From positions 14,895 through 78,894 of the forward strand of contig JAUYKA010000008.1 in assembly GCA_030698495.1 (NCBI GenBank): DNA of 64,000 nucleotides, read 5' to 3'. Below the pieces are notes generated by a model. The model did no database searches. It was given only the letters and a program-made list of their open reading frames with translations, and was not told the DNA's origin. Source of the stretch: a bacterium. GTDB lineage: Bacteria; Patescibacteriota; Andersenbacteria; UBA10190. This document shows positions 2,274-52,753 of this stretch, piece by piece. The position numbers were made by a program, and so were the translations under genes. Numbering within the stretch: position 1 is the stretch's first letter; each line of letters begins with the position of its first letter.

Positions 2274-4712
2274 CTATTCAACTTTTGAAAGTACGATCAG
2301 GATTGTGATGGCAGATACTAAACTGATGAGACTGCCCCAAATAAAAGAGTTTGGCAGAAACTTTATAGTGATTGTTTGTCCGATATCCGCGGCGGATATA
2401 TAAAATGCGGGGCGGAAGTTTTGGGCGAAAACTGAACGATTCGACGCGCGCCAACCGGCGGCGTATTTTTGGTTGACAATGATCGTATCTTGGCCGTTGT
2501 CCGGTGTAATTGAGTTTACTTTGAAGGTAATTTTGTTGGGGGTGTATTGTATTAATGTAATACCGCTGCCGTTTTGCGCGAATAATTCGCCGCGGTATCG
2601 CTCGTTTTGGTGTCCGGTTATGGAGGCGTTAGATTGCCAGAGTTGAAGATGCGCCGGGCACTGATTGGCGGCACCGTCGCCTGCGTTGACGGTATGATAG
2701 CTGATGTCATTTCTGTTTTCTTCTTGGGTGAAGGTATTGCCATAGGGGCTGGCGGTTATAGGGGGCAGACTAAATATCTGCTGCCATGGATATGCCGCTG
2801 TCAGACTAAGATCTATGAATATTATACCTGCAACAATTGTAGTAACGGCGGGTCTAAAAGCAATTGGTAAGAAACGATTGATAATGGTTTGGGTGCCCAT
2901 GGCCGCCAGAAGAGAAAGGGCGAGGACAACCATAATCATTGCTCTGCCGGAGTTGCGGAGTTGGTTGAGTACGGGGAAAAAATCAATAAAGCTATGACTG
3001 GCAGGGGCGGTTACAATAAGCAAAAAGGAGAGACCGGATATGATAAAAAGGAAAAAGAGAAGACGGCGGCGTACTTGAAGGATGGCGGTTAAACCGGCAA
3101 GCGCTAATATTAGCGGAAACCAACCGATATAGGAGGAGTATTCGTGCCAAGGTTGTTCCAGCCAAGGCAGGAAATAATATAAATCAATATGTCGGTCGAG
3201 GAGGACGGTGGGTACATGAAGCCAGGGAGTGCCGTTGTTTTTTGCGAGTGCTCCGCTGACATAGCGGAGAAAATCCAGGATAGGCAAAATTTTTATAGCA
3301 CCCAGGGAGAGGGTTAGAATAAAAAATATACAAGTGTTGCGAATGATGGTTGATCTTAGGGGTGAGAGAAAGATAGCAACAAGAGCAGAAAATAAGATTA
3401 TAAAAAGAGATATATAGGTTACTAGATGCACGCGGCCTTCCAGTAAAATAAGAAGTAAAAATATTACCGACATAATAATATATCGGCGTTTCCTGAAAGA
3501 GCGGAGAAAGTAATAAAAAACCCAGGGGACCCAGGCCACTGATAGCCAGAGGAGTTGTCCGGCGGCAAGATGACTAGAGACGAAGCCATTGCCCATAAAT
3601 ATAATTGCTGGAATCAGGGCGGATGCTTTACTTAGCTTTAATTGGAGAGAGAGTAAATATGATCCTATAAGCCCAAGTGCTAGGTATGTGGTAATGGCTA
3701 TTTTAGAACCGATTATATCTCCGAAAACAATAGTGAGAAGGAAGGTTAGGGATGGCCAATAAGTTTGTGGATTGCCCCAACTGGGCGAGCCGCCGCAAAA
3801 GTAGGGATTCCAGAGGGGGAATTGTCCGGCCGCTAAGCTGTGCCGGGCGGCGCTGTAATGACTGGCCGCTTCGGTCCAGTCCCATGTCCCCCAATTGGTT
3901 GCGTTTTGATATACCGGTAAGGAGAAAAACAAAGCCAGGATAATAAATAATAAAATAGGCGGAGATGACAGGAGGCGGTGACTTTTAATTTGTCTGGCTA
4001 TTAAAAGTGATTCGATAGCAACCAGAGCTAGAAAAACAATGAGTACGATGTCGTATAGGCGTGATTGTTCGAATATCAAAGATTGAAGCCGTTGCAGAAA
4101 AGAGGCGCGGTAATAAGTGCGGAAGCTTAAGCTATTGGGTTTTACGCGGCCATTAACGGATATACTGCCGTCGGTGTATTTTGTGGCATCAATTTCCGAT
4201 GGAAGTAGTAATCCTTCGGCATCCGTTCGTAAGGAAAATTGGGAGGTAGTACCGGTTTTTAGAGAAACCGGTTCAAATCGGAATAACAACCAGCGGCCGG
4301 GTGTCAACGACTGTTCATTAAGAGCCGGTTGATTCGATTGCGAAGTAATAAGAAAATTTTGTATGTTATCGGTGCGGCTGACGACTATGGTTCCTGACGA
4401 AGACTTGACGGTAAAAGTTCCGTTAATATTTTTATCACCGGCAGTGTCCGGCTTGATTTGGACGGCGATGCCCGAGATAGGCTGACGTGTGACCAGGAAA
4501 CTTTGTGTGATTGTGTCGTGGGCGTCGAAGGTATGTTCGGAGCCAGGGAGAACGGCGAGTGATTGATCGGTAAGATTGGACGGCGCTGCAAGGAAAGCCA
4601 AAACAAAGCGCGCGGAGATAAAGACGATAACCAGGCAAATAATAACAGCAAATGACGCGGTTATTATCGATGTGGGTTTTAGCGCGGAACTATGAAAGAC
4701 TGGATCGCGCAT
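2274..4712 (-). CDS. YfhO-family polytopic membrane protein, a putative GT-C glycosyltransferase for extracytoplasmic glycosylation.
   Basis: 812 aa with more than 10 TM helices and the motif AAGQFPLWNPYFCGGSPSWGNP. It has a large C-terminal extracytoplasmic domain with AAGWRASN and a final TM anchor. Confidence 0.7.
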   Translation of the reverse strand: MRDPVFHSSALKPTSIITASFAVIICLVIVFISARFVLAFLAAPSNLTDQSLAVLPGSEHTFDAHDTITQSFLVTRQPISGIAVQIKPDTAGDKNINGTFTVKSSSGTIVVSRTDNIQNFLITSQSNQPALNEQSLTPGRWLLFRFEPVSLKTGTTSQFSLRTDAEGLLLPSEIDATKYTDGSISVNGRVKPNSLSFRTYYRASFLQRLQSLIFEQSRLYDIVLIVFLALVAIESLLIARQIKSHRLLSSPPILLFIILALFFSLPVYQNATNWGTWDWTEAASHYSAARHSLAAGQFPLWNPYFCGGSPSWGNPQTYWPSLTFLLTIVFGDIIGSKIAITTYLALGLIGSYLLSLQLKLSKASALIPAIIFMGNGFVSSHLAAGQLLWLSVAWVPWVFYYFLRSFRKRRYIIMSVIFLLLILLEGRVHLVTYISLFIILFSALVAIFLSPLRSTIIRNTCIFFILTLSLGAIKILPILDFLRYVSGALAKNNGTPWLHVPTVLLDRHIDLYYFLPWLEQPWHEYSSYIGWFPLILALAGLTAILQVRRRLLFFLFIISGLSFLLIVTAPASHSFIDFFPVLNQLRNSGRAMIMVVLALSLLAAMGTQTIINRFLPIAFRPAVTTIVAGIIFIDLSLTAAYPWQQIFSLPPITASPYGNTFTQEENRNDISYHTVNAGDGAANQCPAHLQLWQSNASITGHQNERYRGELFAQNGSGITLIQYTPNKITFKVNSITPDNGQDTIIVNQKYAAGWRASNRSVFAQNFRPAFYISAADIGQTITIKFLPNSFIWGSLISLVSAITILIVLSKVE

Positions 4713-7539: not shown

Positions 7540-8632
<1,093 letters not shown>

Positions 8633-46411: not shown

Positions 46412-47517
46412 GGATTGTTATTGAAGCAAGGGCGTTATCGTCTCCGGGAGGAGGCGTAAAAACTTATGTCCGGCAGTTGATTTTGGGGTTAGCGGCAGAT
46501 AAACAAAATTCTTTGACTGTTATTTACGATAGGGAAAACCCTAGGGATAAGTTTATCGGTGCCGGTGAAGCGATTATTAAGAGATACACAGACGCGGGGT
46601 TGAGCTGGTGGCTTAATCATCAGGTGCCAAGAATACTGGATAAAATAAAGCCGGACGTGGTTCATTTTACCAAAGCGGCTGTGCCGTCACGGAAGATATT
46701 ACCGACAGTGGTGACTATTTATGACGTAATTCCCCTGTTGTATCCGCAGGGACAGAAATTATCGAGGCGTTGGTATTGGCGACGAGCACTAAAACAGGCG
46801 GCACAGTTTTCAGATCGCATTATCACTATCTCAAATGTGAGTAAGAGAGATCTTGTAGAGCAGTTAGACGTATCGGCGGATAAGGTTACGGTAACGCCAT
46901 TGGCGGTCGATACTGATTTTTTCAAACCGGTTGATAGGAGGGGGGTAGTGAAACCTTATATTTTATTTGTCGGAACACTGGAGCCGAGAAAAAATGTGCC
47001 GATGTTGGTGCGGGCTTTTTCTCGAATCGCCGGGGAGGTGCCGCACGATTTGATCATAGCGGGGCGCCCAGAAAAGGATATAGCGGCAGTTAAACGGGAG
47101 ATTGACCGGAGTAAAGCGGTGGATAGGATAAAACTTATAGGCAGGGTGTCTGGCAACGACTTGCCGGCATTATACAGCGACGCCGATTTGTTTGTCTGGC
47201 CGTCTATTTATGAGGGTTGGGGATTCCCGCCGCAAGAGGCAATGGCGTGCGGTACGCCGGTAATTGTCAGTGACGGCGGATCACTGCCGGAAGTAGTGGG
47301 CGAGGTGGGTGAAGTTGTCAGTTTTGCCGAGATGGAAGTTTCGAGGCGAACTGGTGATGTTGATTTTGAAGAAAGATTAGCGAAAAGTGTGTTGGATCTC
47401 CTGAATAATAAAGAGAAAAGAAAAAATATGAGTGAACAGGGACTACTACAAGCTAGGGAAAATACGTGGCAACAAGTGGTGGAGATGACAATGTCCGTAT
47501 ATAAGCAGCTTACTTAG
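46408..47517 (+). CDS. GT4-family glycosyltransferase.
   Basis: VWPSIYEGWGFPPQEAMACGTPVIVSDGGSLPEVV. An ATGA overlap with the upstream GT4 indicates coupling. Confidence 0.85.
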   Translation: MRIVIEARALSSPGGGVKTYVRQLILGLAADKQNSLTVIYDRENPRDKFIGAGEAIIKRYTDAGLSWWLNHQVPRILDKIKPDVVHFTKAAVPSRKILPTVVTIYDVIPLLYPQGQKLSRRWYWRRALKQAAQFSDRIITISNVSKRDLVEQLDVSADKVTVTPLAVDTDFFKPVDRRGVVKPYILFVGTLEPRKNVPMLVRAFSRIAGEVPHDLIIAGRPEKDIAAVKREIDRSKAVDRIKLIGRVSGNDLPALYSDADLFVWPSIYEGWGFPPQEAMACGTPVIVSDGGSLPEVVGEVGEVVSFAEMEVSRRTGDVDFEERLAKSVLDLLNNKEKRKNMSEQGLLQARENTWQQVVEMTMSVYKQLT

Positions 47518-47550
47518 ATTATTTATCTATCATGATCACATATGGGTTGT

Positions 47551-47576
47551 ATTACCACATATCGATATGTGGTAAT
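47551..47576. promoter_or_regulatory. Perfect 26-bp palindrome attaccacatatcgatatgtggtaat, 9 bp upstream of the TrpR-like gene start. It is a candidate operator.
   Basis: The sequence equals its own reverse complement. It lies in the promoter region of the 47585 gene. Confidence 0.5.
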
Positions 47577-47584
47577 ATTTTGTT

Positions 47585-48043
47585 ATGGCTAAATATGATT
47601 ATCGTAAATTAAAAACAAAAGAGCGGGAGAAAATTACAGGACAACTCGTTAAAGCGTTTAGTAAAGCAAACAGCAAGCAGGAAGTTCAGCAGTTTATAGA
47701 CCAGCTGTTAACGCCGAGTGAAAAAATAATGTTGGGACGAAGAATTCAGGTGGCTCGATTACTTATTCGCGGGTATACATACGTGGAAATTAGGCAAAAA
47801 TTGAAAGCGGGGATAAGTACAATTAAGTCAGTAGATGGCTGGTTAGAGATGACAGTACCTGATTATCAGGAATTGAGAGATTGGTATCGCAAGTGGATCT
47901 ATACAGATAAGGCAAAAAAGCCGGAGAAAAAGCGGAGCGGCAGTAGGGAGCCGGATATGTTTGGCTCATTTGCCAGTGTTCGGCATCGTTATGCCGGCCA
48001 TTTCTTATTATTGAATTTGTTGTTAGACAGTAATGAGGAATAG
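47585..48043 (+). CDS. TrpR-like DNA-binding protein (YerC/YecD family).
   Basis: LTPSEKIMLGRRIQVARLLIRGYTYVEIRQKLKAGISTIKSV resembles the Trp-repressor-like HTH of YerC/YecD. 152 aa. Confidence 0.55.
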   Translation: MAKYDYRKLKTKEREKITGQLVKAFSKANSKQEVQQFIDQLLTPSEKIMLGRRIQVARLLIRGYTYVEIRQKLKAGISTIKSVDGWLEMTVPDYQELRDWYRKWIYTDKAKKPEKKRSGSREPDMFGSFASVRHRYAGHFLLLNLLLDSNEE

Positions 48044-48054
48044 TTGTGTGTATA

Positions 48055-48078
48055 GTTCCACATATCGATATGTGGTAA
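48055..48078. promoter_or_regulatory. Second copy of the palindrome, with the core ccacatatcgatatgtgg perfect over 18 bp, 14 bp downstream of the TrpR-like stop.
   Basis: The core at 48058..48075 is identical to the core of the upstream palindrome. The flanks differ slightly. Confidence 0.45.
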
Positions 48079-48107
48079 TAATGATAGTTAGTGTTTTTAA
48101 AAAGAGA

Positions 48108-48142
48108 AAACCGCCGGGAGATTTTTGTCTCGCGGCGGTTTG
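48108..48142. terminator. Bidirectional intrinsic terminator between convergent genes.
   Basis: aaaccgccgggag-atttttg-tctcgcggcggttt. It has a GC-rich stem of about 13 bp, an upstream A-tract and a downstream T-tract (ggtttgtaattt). Confidence 0.55.
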
Positions 48143-48157
48143 TAATTTGAAGTCCCT

Positions 48158-48637
48158 TCACGGTTTGGCGCTGCCGGTTTCTGGTGTTTCGGCGGCCGGA
48201 ACCTTGGCGAGGGGATCGGACTGCTCTGGGGCAGATGGGGTTTCGGGACGGGCGAGGATTTCGCGTTCACCTTTTTCGTTGGTGATGACAATAAAGCGGG
48301 GCGGGGGAGGCTCCCTGCCGTCGATTTCGAGCGTGACGGCATCTGTTTCGGCTTGTTCTTCTTTGTAGACTTGAGCGCGGTAGTAAAAAGGAGTGATTTG
48401 GGTGCCGCCTTCGATAGTGAGATAGACACATGTATCGAGGTCAGGAAGGTGTATGGGGTCGCCGCTCTTGTTCTGTGTTTCGACCCATATAGCAGTCATG
48501 ACTAGTATTAGTAAACATATGAGCGCAGCTCCTAGTAAGATGCGTAAGGCTTTGGGGCAGTTCTTCTCTACCAGGTTGGCTCCAAGGATCATTGCAATCA
48601 TACATAAACCAAGAATTAACAGTGTCAGGTCGACCAT
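48158..48637 (-). CDS. Small membrane protein with 2 TM helices and a proline-rich C-terminal tail. Hypothetical.
   Basis: 159 aa. It has LTLLILGLCMIAMILGANL and ALICLLILVMTAIWV helices, then a PPPPRF...PETPSAPEQSDP tail. Confidence 0.45.
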   Translation of the reverse strand: MVDLTLLILGLCMIAMILGANLVEKNCPKALRILLGAALICLLILVMTAIWVETQNKSGDPIHLPDLDTCVYLTIEGGTQITPFYYRAQVYKEEQAETDAVTLEIDGREPPPPRFIVITNEKGEREILARPETPSAPEQSDPLAKVPAAETPETGSAKP

Positions 48638-48737
48638 AATAAGTCTCCTACAACTTCAAGGTGGGATTGAATTGCCAAACGAACGATATTCGAATATATT
48701 GCAGATACTAAGTTATGTCAAGCGTGGTGGCGAATAA

Positions 48738-48863
48738 CTAGATTGCCGCGCCCGCCTATATTTTGCTGAAGCAAAACATAGGCGGGCTCCAGCCGTCGCT
48801 AATCCCACTTTACTAAAGCTACGCGGGACACAGAGCTATGGCCGGCACAGCGCAATGACGACG
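48738..48863. repeat. Intergenic repeat element, copy A. It contains a 17-bp-stem hairpin and the motif GCTATGGCCGGCACAGCGCAATGACG. It is related to 51541..51615.
   Basis: It shares tagattgccgcg...ctccagccg...gctaa...agctatggc(c/t)ggc(a/g)cagcgcaatgacg with copy B. The hairpin gcccgcctatattttgc/gcaaaacataggcgggc is at about 48747..48786. Confidence 0.45.
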
Positions 48864-48929
48864 ACTTTCACGTCAGCGAGCAGTTACTTAGAGACGATAG
48901 CTATGCTCAATTAAAGGAAGGTAAATAAT

Positions 48930-50096
48930 ATGAAAGTAGCCTATTTGACAAATTCGGGGGAGAGGACGGGGGTGGGTTTTAGGGCGGCTAATATCAGACA
49001 ATTGCTAGTATCCGATGGTATTGGGCTGGATGAGTTTTATGTTGATGGGGACAGGGGGGAGTTAAGAGTAAACGGCGAGGTACGGCAGATAATAAAAAAA
49101 TGGCCGGGAGTTTGGGGAAGTAAGACGGTTAACTGGGTCAGGTTGGGCTTGAAGACAAAAAAAGAGCTTGTGAGTGGCGGGTACGATATTGTTCATGCCA
49201 CTAATCAAACTTTGAGTTTTATAATTGACGGCAGTTTGCCGGCGGTGGTGACGGTGCATGATATTATTGAAGTGCTGGAGCCGCAAAGCGGATGGGGGGG
49301 ACTGGCGGCAAAATATTTGTATAGCGGCATAAAGAGAGCAGACCATATTATCGCGGTGTCGGAGTATACCAAGAAAACCATCATGGATTATTACGGTGTG
49401 GCGGCCGGTAAAATAACCGTGGTTTATAACGGAGTAGGCGAGGATTTTTATCCGCTGGAAAGTTTTAGGCAATCTATTGCTTATCAGCAGTGGTTGAGTC
49501 AGCTTAAAATATCAGCAGAGACAAGGGTGATATTGTATGTGGGGTCAGACCATTCTCGTAAAAACGTGATTGGCGCAGTACGGGCTTTTGCCGGGGTAAA
49601 AACTGCGCTTGAGGACGATGGGCAGAGGGCGGTGTTTGTTAAGGTGGGAAAACCGGGGCTGGCTGGCGGCCGAGAGCAATTGCTAAATGAAATTGATGAG
49701 CTGGGAATTAAGGGCAGTGTAAAGTTGATAGCGGATGTGGATAACGAGCAGTTAAACGAGTTGTATAATTTGGCGGACGTTTTGATTTACCCGTCTCGGT
49801 TTGAAGGGTTCGGCCTGCCGGTTTTACAGGCTTTCGCGGCCGGAACACCGGTGGTGACTTCGAATACGACTTCATTGCCGGAAGTCACGGGTGATGATGC
49901 AAAATACGGTAAATGCGCGGCGCTGGTTTATAATCCCGACGACATTGATCGTATGGCGGAAGGGTTAAAAGAGATATTAACTGATAATGACAGGGCGGAA
50001 GAGTTGAGGCTGGCCGGTTTGGAGCGAGCGAAGAAGTTTACCTGGGAGAAGGCAGTACAGAAAGTAAGGCGTGTTTATAGTGAATTGGCAGGTTGA
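48930..50096 (+). CDS. GT4-family glycosyltransferase.
   Basis: LIYPSRFEGFGLPVLQAFAAGTPVVTSNTTSLPEVTGD. A Shine-Dalgarno AAGGAAGG lies upstream. Confidence 0.85.
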   Translation: MKVAYLTNSGERTGVGFRAANIRQLLVSDGIGLDEFYVDGDRGELRVNGEVRQIIKKWPGVWGSKTVNWVRLGLKTKKELVSGGYDIVHATNQTLSFIIDGSLPAVVTVHDIIEVLEPQSGWGGLAAKYLYSGIKRADHIIAVSEYTKKTIMDYYGVAAGKITVVYNGVGEDFYPLESFRQSIAYQQWLSQLKISAETRVILYVGSDHSRKNVIGAVRAFAGVKTALEDDGQRAVFVKVGKPGLAGGREQLLNEIDELGIKGSVKLIADVDNEQLNELYNLADVLIYPSRFEGFGLPVLQAFAAGTPVVTSNTTSLPEVTGDDAKYGKCAALVYNPDDIDRMAEGLKEILTDNDRAEELRLAGLERAKKFTWEKAVQKVRRVYSELAG

Positions 50097-50315: not shown

Positions 50316-51539
50316 ATGAAAATATTGTTTTTGTCGGCCTTATATCCGCCGCAGACGCGCGGAGGCGGCGAGTTGTCAACACACTATATTGCCCAGGGAC
50401 TACGTCAAATCGGGCATGAAGTTCAAGTTGTGACGACAGGCGCGCGAAACGGAGCATATGAAGTTGAGGGCGTGCCGGTCAGGGTGTTGGCGGCTAATCT
50501 AACCGCGAAACCTTTGCTGGAAAGAAGGCATAGCCGGAAAATGGCGAAGATATTGGCGCGGGAAATTAATAGCGGTAAAAAATACGATGTCGTGCACGCA
50601 CATGATTTCAGGTCAGCTTTGGCGCTGGCGGAGTTAAACTTGCCTAACGCACTGGTAACGACACGCGATTACGCGCAGATTTGCGGTTCCCCGAATAATT
50701 TATTAGCGGACGGACGGGAATGTCCCGGCTGTACCAGTATTAAAAATGTTTTGCAAAATCGCAACGTGGTGGAAGCGCCGTTTTTGCGTAAACCGTTCAG
50801 AGTTTGGCAGTACCGGTACAATATTGGATATCGCTTGAAGGCTTTTCGTAAATTTAAACAGCAGGTTTTTATATCGCACGCACAATTGGCGGAAATAAAA
50901 AAAATACAGGATTTATCGCAAACCCAAACAACGGTGATTTATAATCCGGTACCGCCGGCTTATTTGAACAACGCTATCCAGCTGCCGGTGGGGCGGACTA
51001 TCTTGTTTGTTGGTACGATAGAATCGTATAAGGGAGTGGGGTTGTTACTGGAAGCGTTTAAACAAATAAGCCGTCAATATAACGACATCAATTTAAAGAT
51101 TGTCGGAGAAGGGGCGGGGAAGGAAGGATATCAAAACTGGGTAGAGAAAAACGGGTTACAGTACCGGGTGACTTTTGTGGGTCGGGTACCGTGGGATCAT
51201 ATGGGCAGGATTTATGATGAAGCGGCGATAGTGGTGGCGCCGCATATTTGGGTAGAACCTTTTGGCAGGACGGTCGCTGAAGCTATGGCGCGAGGTAAAA
51301 TAGTTATTAGCGCCAATATTGGCGGGCCGGCGGAGATCATCCAGCCTTTTAAGACAGGGGTATTATTCGAAAGGGGCTCCGTTGAAGATTTAATTTTATC
51401 AATTGGTGAGGTACTGGAGATGAATGAGTTCGATAAGAGGGAGATTAGCCGGGCGGCGCGAGAGTGGGTGGCGAATAATTTGAATATTGAGAAGATTGCG
51501 CGGGAATATGAGGAAGTTTACAAGAATTATTTGTGTTAG
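50316..51539 (+). CDS. GT4-family glycosyltransferase.
   Basis: It has ILFLSALYPPQTRGGGE and VVAPHIWVEPFGRTVAEAMARGKIVISANIGGPAEII. Confidence 0.85.
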   Translation: MKILFLSALYPPQTRGGGELSTHYIAQGLRQIGHEVQVVTTGARNGAYEVEGVPVRVLAANLTAKPLLERRHSRKMAKILAREINSGKKYDVVHAHDFRSALALAELNLPNALVTTRDYAQICGSPNNLLADGRECPGCTSIKNVLQNRNVVEAPFLRKPFRVWQYRYNIGYRLKAFRKFKQQVFISHAQLAEIKKIQDLSQTQTTVIYNPVPPAYLNNAIQLPVGRTILFVGTIESYKGVGLLLEAFKQISRQYNDINLKIVGEGAGKEGYQNWVEKNGLQYRVTFVGRVPWDHMGRIYDEAAIVVAPHIWVEPFGRTVAEAMARGKIVISANIGGPAEIIQPFKTGVLFERGSVEDLILSIGEVLEMNEFDKREISRAAREWVANNLNIEKIAREYEEVYKNYLC

Positions 51540-52753
51540 TTAGATTGCCGCGTCTCGCGATTTATCACGCACCTCCAGCCGGCGCTAAAGCTATGGCTGG
51601 CGCAGCGCAATGACGTTGCTTTAGAAACAATATCGGGTAAAACCATTTCGGGTGCTAGTTTTAGAAGGGTGGGATGGGTGTTTGAACCAAAATTGTAATT
51701 AGTATTGACGTCATAAACCGGTGTGGTTTCAGGGGCGCGAACCGACCAGCTTTGCCGGCCGCGAGGACCGGTTTTATTTTCATCGGTAGGGCCGAATAAA
51801 CCAAGGGTGGGTGTGCCAACGATGGCGGCTAGATGCATAAGTCCGGAGTCGTTGGATATAAAAAGTTGGCAGTTTTTCATGATGGCGGCGGTAGTGAGGA
51901 GATTGGTGGTATTTAGTATTTTGTATTTAGTATTTTGCCGCTTTAAAAGCTCTCCTAGTTTTTGCTTGATATCATTTTCATCATTACCGCCAAAGATGAG
52001 AAATATTGTTTGTTGATAGCGTGTTTGATTGGTGAGTAGTTCGGCTAGTTTGGCAAAGTTTTCTAATGGCCAGCGTTTCCATTTGAATTCCTGGCTGGAG
52101 CCGGGATGGAGGCCAACGAGGGTCGTCCCGGGTGGTATGTTGAGCGATTTTAAGATTTTATTTGCTTGTGCAGTTAATTTATTGGGGATGTTTATTTTGT
52201 AGGACGACCCAATTTCCAATTTCCCAGCCGTTGTTTGCGAGCTATGGCCGGCAAGGCAATTTCCCAGCCGTTGCTTGCGAGCTATGGCCGGCAAGGCAAT
52301 TTCCAATTTTGACAGTAAGTTGAGGTTTTGTTCTATGTCATGGAGTTTCGGGTTTGGCGGGACTGAATCTGTCAGTAAGAAACCGCTTTGCGGGTTATGA
52401 CGATAGGGATATTGATGGGCGAGACGTTTGGGGATGCCGGCTAAGTACATATAGGCGGCGCCTTTCCATAATTGGCCGGGGTGGAGCATGATGGCGATGT
52501 CATAATGGCCGCGGCGCAGACGCCACAGTTGTTGATAGTGGAAAAGAAGCGACCCTCTGATTGGCGCTTCGATAACTTCGTCGATATACGGATTGGTTTG
52601 AGCTAAAGCTTTAGTACCGCGTGGGGCAACCCAAACGACTAGACGGGCGTGAGGGTAGTGTTGTTTTAATGTGCGGAAGACCGGCGATTGTATGAGAAAA
52701 TTGCCAATACCGGCAAGAGAAAGTATCAGAATATTGGGTGATTTTTTTGACAT
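51536..52753 (-). CDS. GT9-family glycosyltransferase (ADP-heptose:LPS heptosyltransferase-like).
   Basis: The N-terminus has ILILSLAGIGNFLIQSPVFRTLKQHYPHARLVVWV. The C-terminus has LFISNDSGLMHLAAIVGTPTLGLFGPTD. Confidence 0.8.
   Translation of the reverse strand: MSKKSPNILILSLAGIGNFLIQSPVFRTLKQHYPHARLVVWVAPRGTKALAQTNPYIDEVIEAPIRGSLLFHYQQLWRLRRGHYDIAIMLHPGQLWKGAAYMYLAGIPKRLAHQYPYRHNPQSGFLLTDSVPPNPKLHDIEQNLNLLSKLEIALPAIARKQRLGNCLAGHSSQTTAGKLEIGSSYKINIPNKLTAQANKILKSLNIPPGTTLVGLHPGSSQEFKWKRWPLENFAKLAELLTNQTRYQQTIFLIFGGNDENDIKQKLGELLKRQNTKYKILNTTNLLTTAAIMKNCQLFISNDSGLMHLAAIVGTPTLGLFGPTDENKTGPRGRQSWSVRAPETTPVYDVNTNYNFGSNTHPTLLKLAPEMVLPDIVSKATSLRCASHSFSAGWRCVINRETRQSN
51541..51615. repeat. Repeat element copy B, a short version of 48738..48863. 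It overlaps the 3-prime end of the GT9 gene.
   Basis: tagattgccgcg...ctccagccggcgctaaagctatggctggcgcagcgcaatgacg. It encodes the last roughly 25 aa of the predicted GT9 protein. Confidence 0.45.
52217..52296. repeat. Perfect-but-one 40-bp tandem duplication inside the GT9 coding sequence. The unit is caatttcccagccgttg(t/c)ttgcgagctatggccggcaagg.
   Basis: The two units are at 52217..52256 and 52257..52296 and differ at one base. Caatttc heptamers flank them. The unit shares gctatggccggca with the intergenic repeats. Confidence 0.8.

Follow-up and report, generated by a model that had tools for sequence, protein, structure and literature searches.

A conserved pair of palindromes, very probably its own operators, brackets the gene of a TrpR-fold regulator in Candidatus Andersenbacteria and its CPR homologues

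A gene for a TrpR-fold protein in a Candidatus Andersenbacteria genome lies between two copies of a palindrome, one (P1) directly ahead of its start codon and the other (P2) shortly past its stop codon, and the same bracket, built each time from a palindrome of different sequence, recurs around the homologous genes of other genomes. Comparison of these loci indicates that P1 and P2 are very probably operators of the protein encoded between them. The explanation that best accounts for the observations jointly, and which we consider probable, is that the two sites are cognate operators of a homodimeric TrpR-fold regulator, with P1 serving autorepression and P2 acting as a cooperating site, likely by looping of the intervening DNA. 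The sites themselves, their restriction to this gene, the conservation of the bracket with co-varying sequence and the fold of the protein are described below for the window, which is the whole 64,000-nucleotide (64-kb) stretch of DNA that was analyzed, and for its homologous loci; from these we infer binding and the sign of regulation, together with looping and any effector or regulon.

The preliminary description of this DNA placed a perfect 26-bp palindrome, attaccacatatcgatatgtggtaat, at 47551–47576, and it is there as claimed; its full length is 28 bp (47550–47577), and the 26-mer ends 8 nt ahead of the ATG at 47585 rather than the 9 given, leaving a gap of 7 nt between the end of P1 and the start codon. 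The 22-bp core frame of P1, TACC-N14-GGTA, spans 47553–47574. The 18-bp core CCACATATCGATATGTGG has an exact second occurrence at 48058–48075, 14 nt past the TAG stop (48041–48043), as had also been described, and the stretch shared by P1 and P2 is 23 bp, with 47555–47577 identical to 48058–48080. Viewed in the 22-bp frame (48056–48077), P2 is a palindrome with a single mismatch (TTCC versus GGTA), and the two sites lie 504 bp apart from center to center. By our own estimate (64000 x 4^-14), the chance of a perfect 28-bp palindrome in 64 kb is ~2e-4. With up to three mismatches allowed, two matches are observed in the 64-kb window versus 0.01 expected from shuffled sequence, and a search tolerating up to 7 mismatches in 22 positions finds no further P1- or P2-like site in the 64 kb. 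The 18-mer has eight single matches in the GTDB species genomes (596 Gb; Prevotella, a Pirellulaceae MAG, a Bacillales MAG), among which the source genome does not figure; these matches are uninformative, since their count is about that expected by chance (roughly 9 in 596 Gb). The features of the window and the palindromes of homologous loci are collected in Table 1.

Table 1 Features of the regulator locus in the window and palindromes of homologous loci
Feature	Coordinates	Strand	Sequence, basis or remarks
P1, putative upstream operator	47550..47577	.	perfect 28-bp palindrome TATTACCACATATCGATATGTGGTAATA
Candidate -10 hexamer TAATAT	47573..47578	+	read from the sequence; 6 nt before the A of the ATG; putative
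Gene of TrpR-fold protein, 152 aa	47585..48043	+	Pfam, PDB profile, AF2/Foldseek and family alignments
P2, putative downstream operator copy	48056..48080	.	TTCCACATATCGATATGTGGTAATA; in the 3' untranslated stretch, ahead of the terminator
Bidirectional intrinsic terminator	48108..48141	.	AAACCGCCGGGAGA-TTTTTG-TCTCGCGGCGGTTT; inverted repeat; -25.3 kcal/mol, z = -5.8
Palindrome of L013			TACCTCATATCGATATGAGGTA
Palindrome of L017			TACCATACATCGATGTATGGTA
Palindrome of L023			TACCGTATT-CTGT-AATACGGTA
Palindrome of L025			TACCATTCGCCTATATATGGTA
Palindrome of L014 and L021			ACCTATCGATAT-N6-ATATCGATAGGT

The encoded protein consists of a TrpR core (about residues 11–110), a basic linker and a family-conserved C-terminal motif, SVRHRYxGHFLLLNLLLD, and its start is backed by the N-terminal alignment of homologues (MAKYDYRKL / MSKFDYRKL). 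Residues 20–96 match the Pfam family Trp_repressor (PF01371) at 54.5 bits, above the cut-off of 27. In contrast, the protein scores below the cut-offs of both the YerC/YecD model TIGR02531 (37.1 versus 42.2 bits) and the TrpR equivalog TIGR01321 (34.5 versus 67.25). A profile of the family matches the YerC-like structures 3kor, 3frw and 3g1c in the PDB at ~1e-10 and E. coli TrpR at ~1e-5. An AlphaFold (AF2) monomer model built from 43 family members reaches pLDDT >90 over residues 11–110, and Foldseek returns 3kor, 1trr, 1tro, 3frw and 3g1c as its best matches, with probability 1.0 and target TM scores of 0.66–0.73. As such, the model confirms the predicted all-helical TrpR/YerC protomer fold, with the C-terminal helices (129–150) modeled at low confidence (pLDDT ~60). 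In NCBI the exact protein (MDP3997128.1), from a Candidatus Andersenbacteria MAG, carries the annotation of a Trp-family regulator. The earlier label YerC/YecD is only approximate, because the TIGR02531 score falls under the cut-off and the palindromes differ from the published HisR/YerC operator motif (PMC9413887). The protein is an orthologue of neither HisR/YerC nor TrpR; its place is in a large subfamily that is known so far only from the CPR and carries the conserved C-terminal FLLLNLL motif. This subfamily comprises 121 clusters (50% identity) at E <= 1e-30 and 1926 at E <= 1e-10, and the source names seen among them are CPR lineages throughout (Andersenbacteria, Moranbacteria, Patescibacteria). 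A literature search found no paper on TrpR-like regulators in the CPR.

The DNA around the homologues was compared in 13 independent loci, whose proteins are 27–57% identical in pairs and to which a metagenome scan contributed only two. A cognate palindrome pair, one member upstream and one downstream of the TrpR-like gene, is present in 13/13 loci. The upstream palindrome or inverted repeat lies 4–49 nt ahead of the ATG in 12 of them, and the downstream copy, found in all, lies between -2 and +39 nt from the stop codon in 10. In L015 the downstream copy is 326 nt past the stop, beyond a small convergent ORF, and in L017 three tandem ~47-bp units (3851–3990), each with an operator copy, stand upstream; the first of these is perfect, the second and third are degenerate, and P1 lies 118 nt ahead of the ATG. 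The sequence of the palindrome varies from genome to genome, and the frame TACC-N14-GGTA is common to seven loci. Thus the position of the palindromic site at its own gene is conserved among orthologues while its sequence co-varies (13/13).

As a control, the two 150-bp flanks were compared for each of 105 further ORFs of these loci, and the longest word common to both was scored. For 103 of the 105 this word is just 6–11 nt long, the exceptions being a T/A-rich word of 13 nt and a 29-bp repeat of an unrelated kind, whereas the TrpR-like genes have 14–35 nt common to both flanks in 12/13 loci. On the strength of this flank comparison, the bracket is a property of the TrpR-like gene family and is neither chance nor a generic repeat. 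The one control comparable to the TrpR-like bracket is a 150-aa ORF of L014 (1970–2422, minus strand) that has no Pfam domain and is bracketed by the exact 29-bp repeat AACGACTGCGTGAGTAGCTTCTGAACAAC. A separate observation comes from a 157-kb metagenome contig (L016, 3001–3412), in which the TrpR-like gene appears to be frameshifted around 3250; tblastn aligns residues 1–83 only, the C-terminal motif lies in a different frame, and both flanking palindromes are intact.

Several properties of the sites fit recognition by a symmetric protein dimer. The size and symmetry of TACC-N14-GGTA agree with the operators of TrpR and HisR, which are 18–20-bp palindromes (PMC9413887), and the outer TACC/GGTA is kept in sequence across divergent genomes. 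Where the center of the palindrome is asymmetric, the upstream and downstream copies have the same orientation in L024 and L025 and are reverse-complemented in L021 and L023; the orientation of the site is therefore irrelevant, as for a symmetric dimer. The recognition helices of L014 and L021 are near-identical (STIESVDRWLSEA), and the operator arms are the same in both. In L025 a third site, TTACTACTATTCGCCTATATATAGTAGTAA at 2858–2887, lies 8 nt ahead of an HD-domain gene with both arms altered in a compensatory manner, and a weaker operator-like site (7973–7994) precedes a GH1 gene; in L023 an operator-like site with one arm mismatch lies inside argS (129–158). A point against this reading is that several P1 sites are perfectly symmetric over 28–38 bp, which exceeds the footprint of one TrpR-type dimer. 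The original suggestion of a dimeric HTH repressor with two operators flanking its own gene is strongly supported by these comparisons, in that palindrome pairs are found in 13/13 loci with a sequence that changes from one genome to another; the autoregulation and DNA looping proposed along with it are putative.

In the proposed mechanism, each dimer would recognize the 22-bp dyad TACC-N14-GGTA, the inner bases of which would be specific to the lineage. The candidate -10 hexamer TAATAT lies inside or adjoins the right arm of P1, and the same geometry, TANNNT followed after 6–7 nt by the ATG, is found in L014, L019, L028 and possibly L013; a consensus promoter scan calls no full sigma-70 promoter at P1. 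This arrangement suggests a leaderless mRNA whose core promoter is covered by P1. Since P1 overlaps the probable core promoter, its occupancy would shut off transcription of the regulator's own gene and so provide negative autoregulation, and it could also block read-through arriving from the upstream GT4 genes. P2, placed right after the stop codon, would be the second, cooperating site. Most likely, a dimer at P1 and another at P2 would join across ~500 bp and loop out the gene between them, with the hydrophobic C-terminal FLLLNLL helix as the candidate bridge. Alternatively, P2 may serve as a roadblock or insulator. The next gene is convergent in five loci (among them the window, L013, L019 and L023) and co-directional in at least six (among them L012, L021, L024 and L025), and a cooperating second operator is favored because P2 is tied to the stop codon of the regulator whatever lies downstream. 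The distance from P1 to P2 ranges from 463 to 822 bp over the 13 loci and shows no helical phasing (Rayleigh R = 0.10–0.27, p = 0.39–0.87 for repeats of 10.0–11.3 bp, n = 13), phasing being only weakly constrained at ~500 bp.

A more specific form of this mechanism is tentative, and we hold it to be possible rather than likely. Here the FLLLNLL helix would pair dimers into a tetramer that clamps the palindromes at the start and the stop of the gene, so that gene and sites together would form a portable, context-independent autoregulatory cassette of the CPR and a valve on through-transcription. Such a valve might act, equally tentatively, in heptose and GT4 glycan operons, for example, where the cassette is frequently located. 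In a variant of the same reading, the long perfect palindromes would be recognized as extruded hairpins or cruciforms.

A rather unlikely alternative is that the encoded protein uses P1 and P2 as operators that work independently of each other, with P1 autoregulatory and no loop formed. In that case P2 could be a roadblock, an insulator, or the operator of the next gene or of a small transcript starting in P2, and the cassette could gate read-through in gene arrays such as glycan operons. The lack of a helical-phasing signal between P1 and P2 is compatible with such sites. A co-directional gene follows in 6/13 loci, starting 0–215 nt past P2; in L021, L023 and L025, P2 directly adjoins the stop codon or overlaps with it, and the sites of L025 precede two HD-domain genes, one on each side of the regulator. 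However, P2 faces a convergent gene or a terminator in 5/13 loci, including the window, which leaves it with no downstream target there. P2 is kept regardless of the orientation of the neighbor, a sign that its role belongs with the regulator gene, and the looped pair of cooperating operators thus remains the preferred reading.

It is far less probable that the palindromes function as nucleic-acid hairpins, that is, as RNA stem-loops at both ends of the mRNA, 5' and 3' (a terminator, a stabilizer or an RNase III site), or as hairpins or cruciforms extruded from the DNA, with recognition by the protein optional in either case. In several genomes P1 is perfectly palindromic over 28–38 bp, and compensatory double changes distinguish copies within a genome, as in the third site of L025 and at positions 8 and 23 in L012, which is what conserved pairing would produce. 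The outer TACC/GGTA, however, is conserved as sequence across divergent genomes, which pairing alone does not require, and the mismatches between arms show no bias toward G-T (G-U) wobble pairs (7 of 35). As an RNA hairpin, P1 is stable (-16 kcal/mol, z = -3), whereas P2 is no stabler than shuffled sequence (z = -0.5). P1 with its T-run (TTTTGTT) scores as terminator-like, but it was flagged as an intrinsic terminator only once and has only 3 GC pairs, its U-tract is not conserved among homologues (the T-run is absent after P1 in 11/12 other loci), and a true strong terminator lies 30 nt beyond P2. A Rfam search of 46500–49500 gave no match. The invariable link of the palindromes to an HTH gene argues for recognition of the DNA by protein.

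The strong terminator is common to the TrpR-like gene and the convergent ORF at 48158–48637 on the minus strand, and it marks the real 3' end of the unit. This 159-aa ORF was considered as a conserved partner of the regulator and rejected, as it has no similarity to its counterpart in L013 and no Pfam domain. NCBI annotates it as such, whereas the gene caller of the Logan contig instead places a 106-aa ORF at 48033–48368 on the plus strand, running across P2 and the terminator; by eye, the minus-strand product resembles a small membrane protein and the plus-strand translation looks like noise. These differing calls mean that automated annotation of the P2 region is inconsistent.

Least probable of all, at a level we regard as close to negligible, is that the pair forms the ends of a small mobile or recombining cassette of a Xer/dif-like, pdif-module-like or REP/RAYT-like kind: the contexts of the gene are diverse (glycan clusters, the str operon between fusA and tuf, beside aaRS genes or dnaG), the layout is like that of the palindrome-bracketed genes of REPtrons and pdif modules, and two short-read assemblies break exactly at P1, but no recombinase or transposase is found near the gene among the window ORFs scanned or in most loci, no target-site duplication is seen at the outer edges of P1 and P2, the product is a 150-aa HTH protein without a catalytic domain, the crossover region would be perfectly symmetric in many sites, a scan of viral contigs found no relatives, and the palindrome occurs in 2 copies in 64 kb rather than as a multi-copy repeat. 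The assembly breaks are better explained in another way. In two independent k=31 Logan assemblies (L009, L011, L030) the contig on one side stops at 47579, its successor begins at 47551, and a single 31-mer, 47550–47580 (TATTACCACATATCGATATGTGGTAATATTT, the palindrome plus TTT), is missing from both flanking contigs. Inversion or excision of the cassette was rejected as the cause, since the break is only on the outer side of P1 and the downstream contigs run through P2. A k=31 graph built from the window by itself does not branch at P1. The break pattern is that of a node with two predecessors and two successors; by implication, the palindrome with its TTT recurs unchanged at another place in the genome or sample, and at least one more operator outside the window is predicted. 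Two 81-aa ORFs around the cassette of L028 were also considered as paralogues and are not paralogous.

The window surrounds the regulator with glycan genes, namely GT4 enzymes on both sides, a GT9 heptosyltransferase, GT2s, methyltransferases and an epimerase. No other DNA-binding domain is found among the 30 window ORFs scanned, which agrees with the earlier statement that this is the only recognizable transcription factor of the window, and the same ORFs include no histidine gene. Homologues lie in glycan/GT or sugar-nucleotide clusters in 5/13 loci: those of L017 and L024 sit among GT4 genes, and those of L012 and L019 in clusters for heptose and dTDP-sugar precursors (SIS, PfkB, CTP_transf and epimerase genes). 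Other homologues are located in the str operon, beside aaRS genes or beside dnaG. No site is present at any other gene in the 64 kb, and the window therefore holds no direct evidence of control of the GT genes. The proposal that this pair serves the glycosylation system as its regulatory handle draws on guilt by association with the 5/13 homologues and is not supported by the distribution of sites, with P2 facing a terminator and a convergent gene; taken together, these neighborhoods suggest such a role only weakly.

Some further features of these neighborhoods were recorded in their own right. The window has a GT9 heptosyltransferase ORF at 51536–52753 on the minus strand, and heptose-precursor genes (SIS/GmhA-like, PfkB, CTP_transf_like) occupy 7652–9760 in L012 and 1012–2985 in L019, a recurring link between the regulator and the synthesis of heptose-containing glycans. 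Inside the same GT9 ORF, a 40-bp unit, GGCAATTTCCCAGCCGTTGYTTGCGAGCTATGGCCGGCAA, stands twice in tandem with one mismatch (52234–52313), the only other k=31 repeat in the window. GC skew, (G-C)/(G+C), is positive in every 2-kb bin of the whole 64 kb, at 0.09–0.31, with genes on both strands, and this strand asymmetry is unusually strong and uniform.

CPR/Patescibacteria are mostly uncultivated. The comparison made here yields a defined protein–site pair for a large family (the 121 clusters at E <= 1e-30), with a predictable operator frame and a conserved layout in which operators stand at both ends of the regulator gene. Such a pair would be accessible in vitro by means of synthetic DNA, with no culture needed, and the regulons could be read from metagenome-assembled genomes.

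HisR is the TrpR-family histidine repressor of Firmicutes (B. subtilis YerC), with a palindromic operator of ~20 bp and the motif cacTTTA-N6-TAAAgtg, and in about half of genomes a site ahead of hisR itself indicates autoregulation (PMC9413887). The present protein shares PF01371 with HisR, and its nearest solved structures are YerC-like (3kor, 3frw, 3g1c). Unlike HisR, it has an extra C-terminal extension of ~50 aa that carries FLLLNLL; its sites, TACCACATATCGATATGTGGTA in the 22-bp TACC-N14-GGTA frame, do not follow the cacTTTA-N6-TAAAgtg motif, a second operator regularly follows the stop codon here, an arrangement not reported for HisR, and no his genes are nearby, the source names here all being CPR. 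E. coli TrpR has the same intertwined-dimer HTH fold (matches to 1tro and 1trr), and the motif LLTPxE and the G..TI recognition helix are common to both. TrpR acts at trp, aroH and trpR, where its palindromic operators overlap the promoter, is autoregulated, and binds extended symmetric operators as tandem dimers. The two differ in that E. coli TrpR uses one promoter-proximal operator at each target, with none downstream of trpR, while the present protein falls well short of the TIGR01321 cut-off and has no amino-acid genes nearby.

A gene bracketed by palindromic, hairpin-forming repeats is also known from REP/RAYT systems (REPtrons) and from the ends of IS200/IS605 elements, yet those involve HUH Y1 transposases and high-copy repeats, in contrast to an HTH regulator with two copies in 64 kb. 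In function, the proposed arrangement is closer to repressors that act through spaced operators and looping, such as lambda CI (with OR and OL flanking cI-rexAB), LacI (O1, O2, O3), GalR (OE, OI) and DeoR. Like these, the present locus has at least two cognate operators hundreds of base pairs apart that enclose a promoter or gene; the operator clusters of lambda have the repressor gene itself between them. These repressors are of unrelated protein families, however, and the bracket here is a tight one from start to stop codon (~500 bp), family-wide, and with no phasing signal in its spacing. If the C-terminal motif proves to be the bridging element, the CPR regulators would constitute a compact new case of autoregulation by looping out the regulator's own gene.
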